A stretch of 64,000 nt of DNA. Origin: Eledone cirrhosa (taxonomy: Eukaryota). A program made the translations under genes and the position numbers. A model generated the notes under the pieces. That model was given only the letters and a program-made list of their open reading frames with translations. It ran no database searches and had not been told where the DNA came from. The stretch is from positions 216,690,001 to 216,754,000 of the forward strand of contig OZ024743.1 in the NCBI GenBank assembly GCA_964016885.1, written 5' to 3'. Numbering within the stretch: the stretch's first letter is position 1; every line of letters begins with the position of its first letter. Positions 232 to 40,340 of the stretch are shown piece by piece.

Positions 232-513
232 AAATCGATCATATTCTTCGTCAAAATAAGGCTTGACATTTTAGGAAAAACAATAACTAATTACTGGAAA
301 AACAACTATAACAACGATTCTTGTTATTACTAAATAATGATTTCAACAATAATGAAAATAAAACCGATATATATATATATAAGGTATCTATTTTTGAAGA
401 TCTAGTTAACTTTATTTAGTTACCTACCTATCTATGTGTGCTTACACGCTTGTAAAAATTATCCCCTGTGATTGTTTCATATGTTTATTTATATGTAAAT
501 CAATTTCTAGTTG

Positions 514-561
<48 letters not shown>

Positions 562-1076: not shown

Positions 1077-1305
1077 GAAAGGTAAACAGAAATAACAACA
1101 CAATCGGTACAGTATATGGAAGGTATATATTAGGTTAATGCTTGATATAGCAGGTAGAGGGTCTTAACGTTTTGGACGCTAGTCCTCCATTAGAAGAAAG
1201 AATGAGAAATAAAATAGATTCAGGCGACGGGCGGATTGGAATTGGAAAAAATTTGAAAAAAGTTTTTAGATGAACATAACAGGTCCATTCATGTTGACTT
1301 CTCTT

Positions 1306-1379
<74 letters not shown>

Positions 1380-1425
1380 TACATAAAGAGAAGTCAACAT
1401 GAATGGACCTGTTATTTTTATCTAA
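1077..1425 (-). mobile_element. pLTR-like element with decayed minimal HHR (1162-1197) and a short inverted copy (1381-1425) across a (TA)n run
   Basis: Minus strand TCTT-CTAATGG-A-GGAC tagc GTCC-AAAA-CGTT-AAGA; 1281-1310 is inverted at 1381-1410. Confidence 0.6.
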
Positions 1426-1426
1426 A

Positions 1427-1831
1427 AGCTCACTGGATATGCAAATTAGACTGCTCAGCCGTTAATAAGCATAAGGAAAGTATATACTTTCAGACGTTCA
1501 ACCATCTGGCAGGAAGGTATACGATGCTGACGATAGTTAATAAGCTTGAAACTAGTACATCGTTCCTCTGTCAGTGTTGTACAAAAAGGTGACGTGGTTG
1601 CCTAAACACTGTACGGCGTAATTCGGGCTCTTTGTTTGTTTACAAACATACCAAGCACTATAATGAATGTTCGGTAAACCGATACGTGCATATGTATATG
1701 TGTGCATGTATGTATATATATACATACTACTGCACGTCTGTATACATATATGTATGTACGTATACATACATACTTACATTTAAGTAACTGCCTCACTAAG
1801 AGTGAGAAATGAAATTTCGTTTCATTCTCTT

Positions 1832-1833
<2 letters not shown>
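1427..1833 (+). mobile_element. Retrozyme-like family F near-monomer
   Basis: Reverse complement of the 425-bp unit at 4521-4945; contains ATGCAAAT at 1439-1446 and an intact HHR. Confidence 0.85.
1521..1563 (+). ncRNA. Minimal type I hammerhead ribozyme, family F (intact)
   Basis: ACGATG-CTGACGA-T-AGTT aata AGCT-T-GAA-ACTAGT-A-CATCGT: 6-bp stem I, palindromic stem III, GUA site. Confidence 0.85.
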
Positions 1834-1904
<71 letters not shown>

Positions 1905-1911
<7 letters not shown>

Positions 1912-3445
1912 ATACTTGGGGAGGGTCATATTTGTGTAATATTGCCAGAATTAATAACAGAACACACTCATTGTTTGGCTGGTTTTCGCTTCTCGCTGTC
2001 TTTTATATCGGTAATATAACTTACTCGGTCCTCAATGTTGCCATTGACTGACCGACGGTCAAAAATAGTACAGATACAATATAGACACAGACACATATAT
2101 ATAGTTTATCATAAATCTTTCGTTGCACATATGCAACATCGTCAGTGGTGTTATATTTTCCTCCTGTTGTGTTGTATGTCTACGCCATTTTTATTCAGTC
2201 TGTCTATATATTTATTTATTTATTTGCTTGTTTGTTTATTTTATTTCGTCTTCTTTGCGCATGCGTTTGCGTGTGTGTATAGTGTTATGTTTGCTGTGTG
2301 ATGGGTGACTAGTGTGTGTTTATGTGCTTGTTCTTATTGTGCTTGTGTATGTATGTATTTCTTTATTTATCTTATTTGATTTACTTATTTATACTTCTCT
2401 TAGGTCAGTGTTGTTTGTTTGGGTGTTGTTGTTATTCCATTCATTCTTTCTGTTTAGCTTTGGTCTTCTAATTTCTATTTCACTGGCCTCTCTGATTTGC
2501 CTATCTGCTGGGTCATTTCTATGTTTAGATATTATTCTAATTTCTATGTTGTCTATGTTACCGTCATGTTGTTGTCTAGCATGTTCGTATAGTACTGACC
2601 CGTTTTTTCCTCCTTTTAGTTCCCCCCCAGTGTTGGTCTATCCTTTCACCTATGCTACGAGCTGTCTCACCTATGTATGTTGTTGTCATGTTTCTGCAAG
2701 TATCCTCTGTACATCTTATGCTATAGACTACGTTTCTAGTTTTACAGTTTATCCGGGGGTTCACCTTACATATGATACATTTCCTATTGGTACAGTGGGT
2801 TTTCTTAAAAGAGTAGGTTTTGCAGATCAGGGATTTTATGGTGGTTCCTGGCTTTTCTACCACCTTTATTTTTAAGTGGGTCTTTCTAAGGGCCTTTCTA
2901 CACTGGTTAGCTAATTTCCCTCCAGGGGTGGCGTCCACAAACATGACACTCTGGTATCTCTGGTTGTCGTACCATGAGGTGGCTTTCCCTATCTTATGTC
3001 TAGCCCTATCTAAGCTATTCCATGATTTGCTCCTGTATAATGGGCAAATTCCTTTCCTGTCCAGTTCTATGAGGGTCTTATACTTTTCCATGGCTCCTTC
3101 GTATACTCTGACTCTGTCTCTTTGGTTGTAGCCAGAGAACATCATGCGGTTGATGAAGTGTTGGATGTGTCTTTCCATTTCTGTTGGGTCGCACATGCGG
3201 GACACATTCTTCATCACTCGTACCAAATCTGCGATCAGAATATTAAACTTAGCACAACATTGAGGACCGAGTAAGTTAGATTACCGATATAAAAGACAGC
3301 GAGAAGCGAAAACCAACCAAACAGTGAGTGTGTTCTGTTATTAATTCTGGCAATATTACACAAATATGACGCTCCCTAAGTATAACAATATTTGTTTCGA
3401 CACACGATTTCATATAAAAAACCTCGCAAAACTAATTCATCGCCG

Positions 3446-3447
<2 letters not shown>
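1905..3447 (-). mobile_element. 5'-truncated Penelope-like retroelement (family C) with inverted pLTR at its 5' end, inserted in (TA)n
   Basis: GIY-YIG ORF on minus strand; ~1906-2040 is inverted at ~3255-3390; both ends abut (TA)n. Confidence 0.9.
2389..3245 (-). pseudogene. PLE RT thumb, Cys linker and GIY-YIG endonuclease with one +1 frameshift in a G run (~2622-2628)
   Basis: NVVYSIRC...YIGETARSIGERIDQH; after the shift it continues SVLYEHARQQH...RQIREASEI...LNRKNEW. Confidence 0.9.
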
Positions 3448-3497
<50 letters not shown>

Positions 3498-3500
<3 letters not shown>

Positions 3501-4012
3501 AGAAAACACAGTTAAAGATTAAGAGAAGGATTTTATCCAGTTATTTAAGACCGTTTCATTGGTAAGTGCAAACTTATATTACTATACTGCAAATAGCAGC
3601 CACTCAAATATAATTGTTGTTCACAGTCCAAATTTTCAGAATAGTAAGTAAGTTACTCTTGAAATAATTCTTAATATATATTAAGAATTATAAATATATT
3701 AAGAATTATTTCAAGAGTAACTTACTCTCTATTTTGAAAATTTGGACTGTGACAACAATTATATTTGAGGGGCTGCTATTTGCAGTATAGCAATATAAGG
3801 TTGTACTTACCAATGAAACGGTCGAAAATATCTGGATAAAATCCTTCTCTTAATGCTTACCGGTGTTTTCTCTTTTATACTTTATACTCCAAGATTGAAC
3901 TGAATTCTTACAAACTTGTGGAGTTACCCCTAACCGTACGCTGAAACCATCCATGAAACTGACTTTCTAACCAAGAACTGGATCACAATAAGCAATTTTT
4001 TGCTTCTCTAAC
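3498..4012. mobile_element. ORF-less foldback of two head-to-head pLTRs of PLE family B, each with an HHR motif (3542-3643 minus, 3730-3830 plus)
   Basis: Arms match 58955-59273 and 60962-61094; flanked by (TA)n. Confidence 0.9.
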
Positions 4013-4520: not shown

Positions 4521-5445
4521 ATATAAGTATGTATACGTACATACATATATGTATAAAGACGTACAGTACTATGTATATACATACATACATGCACACATAT
4601 ATATGTATGTACCTATGGGTTTACCGAACATTTATTATAATGTTCGGTTTGTTTGTAAACGAACAGCCCGAATTAAGCCGTACAGTGTTCGGCAACCATC
4701 GTTGCCCTTTTGTTCAACACTGACAAAGGAACCATGAACTAGTTTCTAGCTTATTAGCTGTCATCAGCACCGTATACCTTCCTGTCAGTCCATTGAATGT
4801 TTGAAAGTATATACTTTCCTTATGCATATTAACGGCTGAGCAGCCTAATTTGCATATCAAGTGAGTTAGTCGGACGGGCGTACCGAAAAGGATAAATGGA
4901 AAAAATGAAATTTCATTTCTCACTCTTATTACGGCTGATACTTAAATATAAGTATGTATACGTACATACATGTATGTATACAGGCGTACAGTAGTATGTA
5001 TATACATACATACATGCATAAATATATATATATATATGTACGTATGGGTTTACCGAACATTTATTATAATGTTCGGTTTGTTTGTAAACAAATAACCCGA
5101 ATTAAGCCGTACAGTGTTCGGCAACCATCGTTGCCCTTTTGTTCAACAATGACCGCTAATAAGCTAGAAACTAGTTCATCGTTACTTTGTCAGTGTTGAA
5201 CAAAAGAGCAACGATGGTTGCCGAACACTGTACGGCCTAATTCGGGCTGTTTGTTTCCAAACAAACCGAACATTATAATAAATGTTCTGTAAACCTATAC
5301 GTACATATATATATGTGTGTATGTATGTATGTATATACATACTAATGTACGTCTGTATACATATATGTATGTACGTATGCATACTTATATTTAAGTTCAG
5401 GCGTACTAAGTGTGAGAAATGAAATTTCATTTTTTCCATTTATTC
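4521..5445. mobile_element. Family F: ~1.5 tandem 425-bp units plus an inverted partial copy (5149-5445)
   Basis: ATATAAGTATGTATACG at 4521 and 4946; the inversion junction at ~5149 falls inside the HHR. Confidence 0.9.
4731..4773 (-). ncRNA. Minimal type I hammerhead ribozyme, family F
   Basis: ACGGTG-CTGATGA-C-AGCT aata AGCT-A-GAA-ACTAGT-T-CATGGT. Confidence 0.8.
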
Positions 5446-18195: not shown

Positions 18196-18600
18196 ATTAG
18201 AGTTAAAACTCAATTGGAACCCTGTAACTATTAAGCTCAAAGTATAAATACTGAGCCGATTAATAATATATAGTAAGAAACACAGTAAACCGTGTGTCTA
18301 AAATTACAAGGGTTGAAAAACCACATTTGTTTGAAATATTTAACCAAGAAGCAGACAGAATGATAAATTATACAAACCGCCTCAATAACCATTATATCTC
18401 TCGGACAGATTATCCCTAATCTGTTTCGCCCTGAGTGTGTTTGTAACAGATAATCCTGGGCTTCATCAGCGAGAGAATCTGATTAAATGCCACAAACACT
18501 ATTTGTCAACGTTCACACAGAAAGATGAATTTGTCACCTCGTGCGCCGCTACTCAAACGTGGTATGCGTGTATTGAATAGAAATAACAATCCAACACACA
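18192..18600 (-). mobile_element. ORF-less pLTR/retrozyme-like insert between (TA)n runs
   Basis: Unique ~410 bp bounded by TA repeats, carrying a complete HHR. Confidence 0.65.
18397..18476 (-). ncRNA. Complete type I hammerhead ribozyme
   Basis: TCTCTCG-CTGATGA-A-GCCC...GGGC-GAA-ACAGATTA ggga TAATCTGT-C-CGAGAGA: 7-bp stem I, 8-bp stem III, GUC site. Confidence 0.9.
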
Positions 18601-28733: not shown

Positions 28734-28749
28734 CTATATATATATATAT

Positions 28750-29600
28750 CTTTAAGTCGTTTGGAAGCCGACAAGGCAGATGGGTAAATCTCCGGGTAAC
28801 AAGATCCGGTGGTGGAGAGAGAGATGTAAGTGAGTGTACGTTGAGATGTGTGGCGTGTAAAAGACTGTAGCGTGTAGAAGAATGTAGGAAAGGGCGTAAA
28901 GGATAAAATTAAAAATAATAACACGAGATAGAGTTACCTTGGGAGAGATTTAATTGTCCCTATATATTTCGGATTCACATCCATCAAATGGAGAGTTTTT
29001 TTTTCGGGGGGAAGGAGATTGTCTGTCGGAAAGGTGCGAAACGTGTCCTCCGCTGTTCGTTGTTTTGAATATCTGAGGTATTCAGCAGAGCGCGCGTGCG
29101 CGTGAAATGGGGCGGTCAAGCAGAGGTCGGCGGCCGAAATAATTCTTTCAATTGTGGGAACTATTTCGGCTGCCGACCTCTGCTTGACCGACCCCATTTC
29201 ACGCGCACGCGCGCTCTGCTGAATACCTCAGATATTCAAAACAACAAACAGCGGAGGACACGTTTCGCACCTTTCCGACAGACAAACTTCCCGCCCACCC
29301 CCACGGAAAAAAACCCATTTGATGTATGTGAATCCGAAATATATAGGGACAATTAAATCTCTCCCAAGGTAACTCTATCTCGTGTTATTATTTTTATCCT
29401 TTTCGCTCTTTCCTACATTATTCTACATGCTACAGTCTTCTTCACGCCACACACACATCTCAACGTACGCTCACTTACATCTCTCTCTCCATCACCGGAT
29501 CTTGTTACCCGGAGATTTACCCATCTGCATTGTCGAGGCTTCCAAACGACTTAAAGAAATATACCTTATTATTCCACAATGCTTCAAGCAAACTTCAATA

Positions 29601-33046: not shown

Positions 33047-33796
33047 TATATATATATATTTATATATATAAATATATAGATATATTTGAATGGATACAGT
33101 TTAGTTGAAAGGAATTTATTGACACGTGTTTCTATAACATTTACATAACCTGAAAACAGCTGCTATCTACAAAGTATTAGTTATGCAGACAATCAATATT
33201 TCAATGTTATTATTTACTGTCATTTCATCAGAATAATATTACTGAGGACCTGATTGGTTTTTATAGAGAATATTAGGAGAGAGGGGTGAAGTTGTTAGAA
33301 GAATAGTTGAGGGAGTGGTTTTTTGATAGCAGTGAGAATTTTTGGTGGCAGTGAGTAATTAGATTCCTATCTGTTGTTTTGGCATTTTTATAGAATATAT
33401 TATTGGTTATTTTTCTAAATCTATAGAGGGATTAGAGATAGTAAAGATATGCGTGGTTGGTTTTGTGTTTGCACTTAATTAACATTCAGACTTAAATTTT
33501 TTCTTTCCAGTGTACGTATCCATTCACCCACACATTCTCACACAAACATATTTGCACCCCTCTACAAAATACATATACTCACATTCACATAGTAACATGT
33601 CCATACTTACATACATATACACATGCATACATATATATATACACACATGTACATACATACGCGTTCATGTGTGTACATTTTCATACTCAACTTATCTTTA
33701 TATACACACGTATAGACACACACATATATACATACATAGTCTAGTCTATGTGTATATATATACATATACATATATATCTATCTATCTATCTATCTA

Positions 33797-33842
<46 letters not shown>

Positions 33843-34118
33843 CATTTTAATACATGAATACACTTACATCTAACTATACACATCAAACATATATATATAT
33901 CTACTTATTTATATACATGTTCACATATATATACATACTTATGGTCGCTTTTAGACACATTCATTATCGCATTTTTGCACATATTCTCATCAGCATATCT
34001 TTCCATTATTAGTGTGGTAATTTGAGGTTATTAATATACATATATATGTTGAGAAGAAATTGTTTTTATATTTTTCTAACTAGATTGAGGTTTATATAGT
34101 TGGGGGGATGTCCCTCTT

Positions 34119-35124
34119 TTATGTAATATTCGGCTTGTAGTGGGAAAAAAGGGTTTTAGTTCGGTGACGGCAGAATAATGTTCATTCAATTCTGTTATTC
34201 AGCAATTTCTTCTTGTGTGTGATTATGTAATACATCTCAAGATTACACAATTTGCAGAAATTTTGGCTCCTGGAAAAGCTTTGGGTTTTAGCTAATTTCA
34301 CCCATTTTAGGGTAAACTTTTGATCGCTATCCCTGAGCGTCCAAGTTTTTCTGCTAAAGTTGTTACATTTCTGGTGTTTTATTGAGTAAGAATGCTTATA
34401 TAATCGAGATTTAAACGATGTTGCCGTTGATCCCACGTAATACCACTCGTTTCCTCCGGATTTAATGGTACATTTATAAATAATATTTTTTTCCAGGCAG
34501 TTATTGCCGAGGGGGCAGTTGTCAGGATAGGTGCAGTTACAGTTGTGTACGTTGGGTTTTCTCTGGAGTAGTATTGCGGACGAACTTAGGTGTGGTTTAT
34601 TTATGTTCTGTAGTGTATTGTCTACTGTTTTTTTTTGTGTTCTTTGTACTTAAGTTTTTAGTGTTTTCGTTTAACCTTCTAGTATTGATCTTTTTTATGT
34701 GTTGTTCAAGGTTTAACGCTGTAGAGTATGACAGTCTTATAGTGGTAGGGTTTAGGATTTTGTGGTATTTGTGTGATGTAGGAAAATGTCTCTTAATTAT
34801 TTTAAAGAAGAGTACTGGTAAATTTGTACTAATGGAACTATTGTATTCGGGGTTATACCATAAGTACTCTTTGCATCGCTTTCTATTAGTTTTGTTTGTT
34901 GGTTTACTGGTGAGCATACTATGGTAGTAAGTGTGATTTATTTTGGGTGTTTTGATTGTTCCCATCTATATACTCTATTTTGTTGAGGTGGCCTGCTTTA
35001 CTAAGGGAGTTATCGTAGTATTCGGCGTGTTCCTTAAATACTTGTATGTTAGAAGATAGACCCGAGATTCTAAGGGAAATATTTTTAGGGATAGATTTAA
35101 TTATAGAGATGGGGTGGTTAGATC
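34119..35124 (-). pseudogene. PLE RT thumb, CNC..CPL..C linker and GIY-YIG endonuclease, disrupted
   Basis: SNHPISIIKSIP..RISGLSSN; LWYNPEY..HFP..IRLSYS; CNCTYPDNCPLGNNCLEKNIIY..YYVGST..FKSR..CKLCNLE..CRHR. Confidence 0.9.
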
Positions 35125-35292
35125 CAACAGATGGGAATCTAATTACTCACTGCCACCAAAACAACAGATGGGAATCTAATTACTCACTGCCACCAAAGAT
35201 TCTCACCGCTATCAAAAAACCACTATTCTTCTAACAACTTCACCCCTCTCTCCTAATATTCTCTATAAAAACCAAACAGGTCCTCAGTAATA

Positions 35293-35413
35293 TTATTCTG
35301 ATGAAATGACAGTAAATAATAACATTGAAATATTGATTGTCTGCATAATTAATACTTTGTAGATAGCAGTTGTTTTCAGGATATGTAACTGTTATAGAAA
35401 CACGTGTCAATAA
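35293..35413 (+). ncRNA. Type I HHR with ~92-nt stem II (family A pLTR)
   Basis: TTATT-CTGATGA-A-ATGACAGT...ACTGTTAT-A-GAA-ACACGTGT-C-AATAA. Confidence 0.75.
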
Positions 35414-35588
35414 ATTCCTTTCAACTAAACTGTATCCATTCAAATCTTTCTATTTTTCTCCGGATTACTTTTGGAATTTCAACTGGAACCGTCGAGCAAA
35501 CTCTACGTGAGCTGTCAATCTACTGTGTGTAATATTTATATTACAACACAACGGAAAATACTGTATATAAATATATATATATATATAA

Positions 35589-35937: not shown

Positions 35938-37258
35938 ATTAGTATATCTACCAACATATGTATACAGATGTATACCCATGCTACCAAATATATATGTTAT
36001 GTCTTAGTACCTTTGTGGTTCTATTCAGGGGGATGCAGAACAATAATATGAAAGAATTAAAATAAGAAAATTTTAAAAATTAAAAATTAACTTACTTACT
36101 AAAATTTTCACTCCAACCAATGAGTTTCAGTAAGGTAGTAAATATAGTTACGCAACGCAACTATAGAGAAGTCCTTACGTTATCAGGGAGTCTATTCTCA
36201 GCTAAGTTCCCAGGCAATACGCGGACACTAGGAACCCATATAAAAATAATAATTCAGTAGATGGAATAAAGCTAGCGGGGACTAAATTCCAGGGCACTGA
36301 AAAAATTCACTGCCTACTTGGATAGTGGCAAATTATAAAGAATCAATCACGTGACACTGAGGTTAATCAGTGAGGAGTGGTGTGGTATTATGACAAGAGC
36401 CTAACTACTACCATGAACCATAGCAGTAAATTTTGGCAAGTTTTGCTCAACAAATAATTTGGAGATAAATATAGAGAATTAGTATATCTACCAACATATG
36501 TATACAGATGTATACCCATGCTAGCAAATATATATGTTATGCCTTAGTACCTTTGCGATTCTATGCAGGAGGATGCAGTACAATAATATGAAAGAAGTAA
36601 AATGAGAAAATTTTAAAAATTAAAAATTAACTTACTTTTAACTTTTAATGTTTAATTTATAATTTATAATTTATAATTTTTAATTTTTAATTTTTAATTT
36701 TTAAAATTTTCTTATTTTACTTCTTTCATATTATTGGTCTGCAACCCCCTGCATAAAACCACAAATGTACTAATACATAACATATATATTTGCTAGCATG
36801 GGTATACATCTGTATACATATGTTGATAGATATACTAATTCTCTATATTAACTCCAAATTATTTGTTGAGCAAAACTTGCCAAAATTTACTGCTATGGTT
36901 CATGGTAGTAGTTAGGCTCTTGTCATAATACCACTCCACTCCTCACTGATTAACCTCAGTGTCACGTGATTGATTCTTTAGAATTTGCCACTGACCAAGT
37001 AGGCATTGAATTTTTTCAGTGCCCTGGAATTTAGTCCCTGCTAGCTTTATTCCATCCACTGAATTATTATTTTTATATGGGTTCCTAGTGTCTGCGCATT
37101 GCCTGGGAACTTAGCTGAGAATAGAATCCCTGATGACGTAAGGACTTCTTTATAGTTGCTTTGCGTAACTATATTTACTCCCTTACAGAAACTAATTAGT
37201 TGGAGTGAAAACTTTAGTAAGTTAATTTTTAATTTTTAAAATTTTCTTATTTTACTTC

Positions 37259-39425: not shown

Positions 39426-39563
39426 ATAATAAATGTGAAGAAGATTAAAATCCGAAGAAGGCTCGATAAGGATTATATATATATATATAAAATAAGGGAG
39501 ACGATCTTGTTAAGGGTCAAAGCAGTGATTCTTTGCTTAATCATATATATATATATATTTATA

Positions 39564-40198
39564 TATAATAACTAGAAATTGATTAACATATAAATATACA
39601 TGGATAATCACAGGAGATAATTTTTACAAGTGTGTAAGTAAACATAGCTAGGAAGGTAACTAAATAAAGTTAACCAGAACTTCAAAAATAGATACCTTAT
39701 AATATGAATAATCTTCCCTGTATATATTCCATTAAAGAAATATATTTCACCAATTAATCGAATGGTAAACCATGGAGGCCGGTACTTGGATTTTCAACAA
39801 GGAAAAAGTCCAGCGATCTATGTTTACACTTCAAATTCAAATCAGCGACTGGCCAGCAACACGTGCTGCTTCTACTAGAAATACACACATCATACCAGCT
39901 TCGTCACAGTGGCGTGAATAGGGTTATCGACAACTAGAAACAGCAATCAAATCCTTTCAACTTGTTGAAAATCCAAGTACCGGCCTTCATGTTTTACCAT
40001 TCGATTAATTGGTGAAATATATTTCTTTAATGGAATATATACAGGGAAGATTAATCATATTATAAGGTATCTATTTTTGAAGTTCTGGTTAACTTTATTT
40101 AGTTACCTCCCTAGCTATGTGTGCTTACACACTTGTAAAAATTATCTCCTGTGATTACTCATGTTTATTTATATGTTGATCAATTTCTAGTTATTATA
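39564..40198. mobile_element. Foldback family E: ~238-bp inverted arms, 158-bp spacer, variant HHR in each arm
   Basis: 39564-39801 is the reverse complement of 39961-40198. Confidence 0.9.
39961..40045 (+). ncRNA. Variant type I HHR with U3-A8 core and AUA site (mirror copy at 39716-39802, minus)
   Basis: CTTG-TTGAAAA-T-CCAA...TTGG-T-GAA-ATATATTTC tttaat GGAATATAT-A-CAGG. Confidence 0.7.
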
Positions 40199-40299
40199 AA
40201 ATGCTCGGAGCTATTCGTTAGAATCTTAGAGCTTATTTTGCGGGTGATATGGCGCATGTCTTTCTGGCATGACACCCATAATTTTGATTATCTTAATTT

Positions 40300-40340
<41 letters not shown>

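Follow-up and report, generated by a model that had tools for sequence, protein, structure and literature searches.

The DNA analysed here, referred to as the window, is a stretch of 64,000 nucleotides of the Eledone cirrhosa contig OZ024743.1, from a 3.0-Gb genome rich in (TA)n. Between two (TA)n tracts lies a short insertion composed of two inverted arms of one repeat, and in each arm a type I hammerhead can form that has a U3-A8 core and a predicted AUA cleavage site (Table 1). The arms are 95.8% identical to each other over 238 nt.

A DNA search of the genome returned 1,719 first-look candidates, of which 40 were scored, and 60 loci were mapped onto a natural unit of the repeat. This unit is non-coding and comprises 546 nt (534-571 nt in other subfamilies); its longest stop-free frame, seen in the L004 unit, reaches about 70 codons. 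Insertions are partial tandems with an internal inversion, and loci L004, L009, L030 and L037 contain two or more non-coding units in a row, every one of them bearing a type I hammerhead. The outer ends of the insertions are 3′ ends, which correspond either to the unit end or to the end of a further tail of ~110-140 nt, and both enter (TA)n. The window copy is inverted, not tandem: a stretch of the unit on the minus strand is followed by another, with the tail, on the plus strand. The repeat is also present in contigs of runs X1 and X4, whose kind is not on record.

Table 1. Features of the insertion, its two hammerhead motifs and its surroundings (window coordinates)
Feature	Position	Strand	Remarks
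(TA)n target sequence, left	39543..39563
Left arm of insertion, 5′-truncated	39564..39961	-	unit 149-546; 3′ end into (TA)n; 96.5% to natural unit L010
Left-arm hammerhead fold	39712..39806	-	9-bp stem I complete
Left-arm stem I	39806-39798 with 39720-39712	-
Left-arm core with U3-A8	39797-39791	-	U3 at 39797
Left-arm H17	39721	-	predicted cut after A39721
Inversion junction with short palindrome	39955..39971		junction at 39961; 7-nt word common to both arm starts; costs right arm 5 of 9 stem I pairs
Right arm of insertion, 5′-truncated	39961..40198	+	unit 309-546; 97.9%
Right-arm hammerhead fold	39961..40045	+	4-bp stem I
Right-arm core	39965-39971	+
Right-arm U·U mismatch (10.1·11.1)	39972/40013	+
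Right-arm stem II	39973-39976 with 40009-40012	+	4 bp
Competing hairpin	39993..40016	+	loop II with stem II 3′ strand and G12-A14; in MFE fold
Right-arm G12-A15.1	40014-40017	+
Right-arm stem III	40017-40025 with 40032-40040	+	9 pairs, one U-G
Right-arm end of AUA triplet	A40041	+	predicted cut after A40041
Segment between right arm and right (TA)n	40199..40301	+
(TA)n target sequence, right	40302..40338

The 7-nt word at the inversion junction occurs at unit position ~150 and in the core, and we infer that the junction arose by template switch. According to the first-pass annotation, the homology between the arms starts exactly at stem I. This is accurate for the window copy, because its inversion junction sits at 39961; it does not extend to the family, in which most of the best copies continue upstream. 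An element that starts at stem I was also discarded as a candidate, since most copies reach further upstream and the bin holding the stem I 5′ strand showed no excess of junctions in a sample picked without the core.

A second 5′-truncated copy of the unit, without hammerhead, lies at window positions 373-518 (+) and starts ~15-17 nt after the predicted cut. Other short inverted-arm insertions stand among (TA)n (e.g. 3499-3879, 28743-29563, 33086-35443 and 36109-37207); the presence of many such insertions in the window suggests many Penelope-type families.

The hammerhead fold

The window motif contains U4, G5, A6, N7 and A9, G12, A13 and A14, the A15.1-U16.1 pair and H17. The usual G10.1-C11.1 pair is absent, and U·U takes its place in all 49 copies of a sample drawn by a 3′ anchor. 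Helix I is open-ended and comprises nine uninterrupted pairs, without an internal loop for the usual contact between loops 1 and 2, and loop II, 32 nt long here, varies in length and sequence across copies. With helix I uninterrupted and loop II variable, no loop 1-loop 2 tertiary contact was identified. Rfam hammerhead families gave no match to these motifs at gathering score or at E ≤ 10; a generic hammerhead scan of the window recovered both motifs among eight distinct places.

The coordinates confirm, in both arms, the combination of U3-A8 core, U·U mismatch and AUA site that the first-pass annotation had described. Its statement that the motif is intact in both arms applies to the left arm; in the right arm the inversion junction runs through stem I and leaves 4 of its 9 pairs. 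The span that it suggested for experiments, 39950-40060, is the damaged arm, and the minus-strand arm is the better material.

With energies from Vienna, which cannot score the hammerhead core, the constrained hammerhead fold is less stable than the MFE structure by 5.8 kcal/mol in the left arm and in a family copy, by 11 kcal/mol in the right arm and by 2.6 kcal/mol in a natural short-loop copy. This gap arises because loop II pairs with G12-A14, as in the competing hairpin of Table 1. As a conserved switch this hairpin is a weak candidate: in 12 of 14 copies, 0.12-0.29 of shuffled loops are equally good (0.23 in the window subfamily), and it stands out from shuffled loops in two far-clade copies only (0.01 and 0.03).

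The 3-8 pair and sequence conservation

The genome was screened with a pattern in which the core and stem II are fixed and positions 3, 7 and 8 are free. It gave 1,433 matches, compared with 0 in the reversed control, and a chance origin of the motif is thereby ruled out. At the 3-8 pair, 1,348 matches carry U-A (by subtraction), 51 C-G, 22 C·A and 12 U·G. The 73 matches with C3 were split into C-G and C·A by hand count, and the 22 C·A include L073, which lacks stems I and III, matched by chance and was left out of the alignment and the tree; L056 failed the pattern and was excluded. A Watson-Crick pair, either U-A or C-G, is thus found in 1,399 of the 1,433 matches. Independent variation of positions 3 and 8, which had been named beforehand as evidence against the proposed ribozyme, occurs at the margin only: C·A or U·G in 34 of 1,433, about 20 of which fall in two small amplified clades.

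In a tree of 55 selected copies, for which positions 3 and 8 were masked, the U-A copies form a clade (100/100) and the C-G copies fill two outer groups (midpoint root). Nested in the U-A branch are a U·G clade (six rows, 99/98) and a C·A clade (five rows, 90/88). Both have been amplified, with 13 matches at 8 loci for C·A and 7 loci for U·G. From this topology, the compensatory change from C-G to U-A probably took place once, and lineages with a mismatch were still able to amplify to a small extent. The C3-G8 sister subfamilies carry the same scaffold.

An alignment of 57 copies (55 distinct) has 96.4% of its cells paired, above all slid controls (37-62%). Nine of the 18 stem pairs have changed on both sides, and 62 double-change cells were counted against 15.8 after shuffling, a covariation that is inflated by relatedness and stems mostly from one far clade. 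Pairing exceeds all shuffles on three of five measures. These comparisons bear on helices I and III, helix II being fixed by the search pattern.

Conservation was measured in 49 copies picked by the 3′-end anchor alone. Here, the variable fraction amounts to 0.013 for the core, 0.020-0.035 for the stems (0.020 for helix II), 0.089 for the flanks, 0.179 for loop II and 0.204 for N7, which makes the flanks about 7 times as variable as the core. The 3-8 pair is U-A in 45 of these 49 copies. Across subfamilies, the unpaired catalytic positions are almost invariant while N7 takes all four bases. The check on core conservation that the first-pass annotation had called for thus gave a near-invariant core in copies chosen without it. 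Together with the covariation and the C3-G8 sister subfamilies, this backs its proposal of a natural hammerhead with a compensatory U3-A8 pair.

Insertion junctions near the predicted cut

A copy was counted as a junction when its similarity to the family is lost immediately 5′ of a given base; classes were assigned by hand and counts were not normalised to copy totals. By this measure, 21 of 40 matches at the first base after the cut are junctions (17 after merging likely duplicates), with 16/19 at +12 and 2/9 at -10. Counts are high at the innermost stem I pair and fall to 2 within stem III. The drop persists without local fold-backs (about 8 vs 2, hand count).

The core-independent sample consisted of the first 100 listed of 1,829 3′-anchor matches, in 79 loci. 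Of its 126 arm ends, 3 were duplicate or split hits and were dropped, and 18 more lacked unit-end anchoring, leaving 105 anchored arms. Among these, 28 ends lie at -2..+40 and 5 at -45..-3; three of the latter are TA-ambiguous or fold-back ends near 0. The per-base end rate at -2..+40 is about 2-4 times that of other interior bins, if 20-25 full units are assumed. The binomial test gave p=0.0014 per arm, the bins having been fixed after the data were viewed and fold-backs giving two ends per event; by locus the counts are 23 vs 5, and 21/26 gave 0.017. The excess is spread as a plateau over positions 0 to about +40 instead of forming a spike, and the 8-nt palindrome present at +7..+14 may by itself favor fold-back.

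Two copies follow the predicted cut closely: L034 runs from cut site to cut site and spans two units, and L015 folds back exactly at the cut. At L034 (691-2126), an AC-rich non-family sequence is duplicated, inverted, at both outer ends. Few 3′ ends coincide with the cut, with about 5 events among 57 hits. The excess of 5′ ends just 3′ of the predicted cut fits cleavage in vivo and suggests it; stalling of the reverse transcriptase (RT) could also produce such ends.

Relation to Penelope-like elements and retrozymes

We consider it likely that the motif is a type I U3-A8 hammerhead in a ~550-nt non-coding repeat, self-cleaving in part of its transcripts and copied in trans into (TA)n by a Penelope-type machinery. 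The repeat has the anatomy of a non-autonomous Penelope-like element, namely a partial tandem, an inverted truncated copy, a one-sided tail and a microsatellite target; partial tandems, inverted arms and tails have been described for such elements (PMC8557442). In the loci examined, no ORF with RT and GIY-YIG was found in the repeat.

In the mechanism that we favor, tandem copies would be transcribed and part of the transcripts would self-cleave after AUA. A Penelope-type RT/endonuclease supplied in trans would copy the repeat into (TA)n, and reverse transcription would start at either of two internal TA-rich points, the unit end or the tail end. On cut RNA, synthesis would run out at the cut and then fold back or switch template, which would create the inverted arm. 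Where the RNA is uncut, or re-ligated into a circle, synthesis would read through the hammerhead and give longer tandem copies. As cut and uncut RNA would both be templates, cleavage is probably partial and favored by selection, and dispensable for some copying rounds. Self-cleavage in the cell itself is likely, judging from the sequence record.

Several observations stand against this explanation: the gap of 5.8 kcal/mol in the main subfamily, a stem I without internal loop for the loop contact, the amplified C·A and U·G clades, the rarity of 3′ ends at the cut and the lack of homology between the unit and the one autonomous family tested. In addition, the junction excess is a plateau with double-counted fold-backs, a local palindrome and post hoc bins. 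Furthermore, hammerhead mutants of the Anolis element had no effect on insertion in vitro, and no RNA-seq reads were found to end at the site (PMC11167929).

A classical non-LTR retrozyme overlaps with this explanation and differs only in the template. Here, efficient cleavage would yield unit-length RNA circles as the main template, and read-through copies would derive from circles; we give it a fair hearing, at somewhat less than an even chance. Metazoan non-LTR retrozymes likewise are non-coding tandems in which every unit bears a type I hammerhead, and have been proposed to be non-autonomous Penelope derivatives (PMC7229834; bioRxiv 10.64898/2026.07.22.740005). The consecutive hammerhead-bearing units at four loci agree with such a cycle, as do the two units between cut sites in L034 and the stable stem III, which suits monomer cleavage. 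Precedents come from the mussel, whose motifs are without the usual loop contacts (PMC7229834; bioRxiv 10.64898/2026.07.22.740005), and from the axolotl, whose HHR_Amex2 is a cleaving ribozyme with U·U at the helix II base (PMC7229834). However, retrozyme units are typically ~300 nt long, well below the 534-571 nt found here, and the repeat is found as short, dispersed insertions that carry inversions and a tail instead of in long arrays. It further differs in its non-canonical 3-8 pair and in its Penelope-type inverted arm and tail. In genomic DNA, circles and uncut tandem transcripts are indistinguishable.

We hold it unlikely that the hammerhead of the U3-A8 lineage has little or no cleavage activity and is retained for its fold, which might serve, for instance, as a handle for a partner protein. 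The junction excess would then come from RT stalling at the stacked stems I and III together with the local palindrome. Two weakening features, U3-A8 and U·U, do coincide, the MFE structure blocks G12-A14 and mismatch clades have been amplified; many copies read through the site, and position +12 yields almost as many junctions as position 0. Against an inactive fold speak the near-invariance of the unpaired catalytic positions next to a freely varying N7, and the step in junctions from the innermost stem I pair to stem III, also without local fold-backs. That the unit is the terminal repeat of an autonomous Penelope-like element, with ORF-bearing copies outside the sample, is very improbable: Penelope copies are mostly 5′-truncated (PMC8557442) and the genome matches are the best or first of those listed, but full units extended upstream meet the 3′ end of another unit, not an ORF, and the RT/endonuclease fragments at the fetched loci belong to neighboring elements, bar one sense-strand fusion.

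An endonuclease beside the L038 copy led to a young autonomous Penelope-like family with 20,858 candidates (e.g. L263-L269 in G000). Its 775-aa ORF matches RVT_1 just under the cut-off and GIY-YIG above it, and the overlapping upstream frame of 409 aa has no Pfam match; in L267 the ORFs lie at 100-1326 and 1239-3563 and the hammerhead motif near 4629. We call the family Neptune-like on account of a C-x4-C-x2-C linker in its predicted protein, after PMC8557442. It also has two 3′ ends into (TA)n, and its repeat holds a minimal hammerhead fold with a 4-bp helix II and a palindromic helix III (12,657 matches; U3-A8 in 100 of 100 among the matches listed). In 30 loci of this family, no homology to the unit was found. 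At one locus (L270 / L037 / L233, G000:C1 near 67.169 Mb), the 3′ region of the autonomous element runs in the sense orientation, with no (TA)n between, into the 5′ end of a copy of 1.5 units, possibly by template switch between the two RNAs.

Further elements are present at loci L002, L012, L204 and L222. The window contains a broken fragment of a GIY-YIG Penelope-type endonuclease (2449-3052, minus strand), 53-62% identical to that of L002. At L002:2370-2405 (-), a canonical minimal hammerhead was recognized by eye; the GIY-YIG ORF upstream of it belongs to another Penelope-like family.

The U3-A8 core itself is already known, including in Penelope elements. Natural U3-A8 pairs and a natural U10.1-U11.1 mismatch have both been published; U3-A8 is reported to be active in vitro, and among mismatches U·U is tolerated best (PMC3088659). 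Both features in one ribozyme, or an evolutionary series with intermediates, are absent from the accessible text of that study. About 1,300 U3-A8 motifs have been tied to Penelope-like elements of Schistosoma (PMC4209133). Cercyon of Schistosoma mansoni resembles the present case in its core covariation, its about 1,300 copies in one animal genome and its location in Penelope terminal repeats, and its hammerheads are often paired on opposite strands, 100-700 bp apart (PMC4209133). However, the minimal hammerheads of Cercyon are without helix III, need dimers and keep G10.1-C11.1 (PMC4209133), whereas the studied motif has 9-bp helices III and I, U·U and a 32-nt loop II.

Poseidon of Anolis shares two alternative 3′ ends, partial tandems and an inverted 5′-truncated copy (PMC11167929), and, with Penelope-like elements in general, AT-rich or microsatellite targets and a hammerhead in the repeat (PMC11167929, PMC8557442). 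The two 3′ ends of the studied repeat have their counterpart in two internal sites of the Anolis element at which RT starts (PMC11167929). In contrast to Poseidon, the repeat has no ORF, its tail is about 110-140 nt long compared with 30-40, and its junctions step at the predicted cut, whereas no RNA ends were found at the Anolis site (PMC11167929). A name for this repeat family was not found in the main texts searched, mostly open access; the main text of PMC13282606 does not mention 'ribozyme', and the accessible part of PMC7151607 adds nothing on U3-A8. In the same main-text literature, as far as accessible, we did not meet U3-A8 and U·U combined with a long helix III, nor the junction footprint.

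In the one reconstituted Penelope system, hammerheads were dispensable in vitro. Since 5′ junctions step at the predicted cut, over a thousand insertions offer a readout of the role of hammerheads in the Penelope life cycle. Moreover, C-G, U-A and the amplified C·A and U·G lineages form a natural 3-8 series on one scaffold, in which cleavage rate and copy success can be compared. The value of the case thus lies in a testable cleavage footprint and a natural allele series.

A wider reading is put forward tentatively, as we hold it to be rather doubtful. The genome would record cleavage during Penelope-type retrotransposition, the cut setting part of the 5′ ends and driving fold-back; the loop II hairpin would keep most transcripts uncut and so allow multi-unit copies; and U3-A8 would have arisen separately in this repeat and in the unrelated autonomous element. 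If true, about 14,000 ribozymes would be hidden from CUGANGA searches.

The window also holds other hammerhead folds. Matches at 33231 and 35298 look weak. Minimal C3-G8 folds whose helix III is palindromic, as is typical of Penelope repeats, occur at 1527 (+), 4767 (-) and 32587 (-). Lastly, another repeat carries a canonical C3-G8 fold at ~18400-18480 (-), with C3 at 18469, a long loop II, an 8-pair stem III and a 7-pair stem I, a build similar to that of the studied motif.
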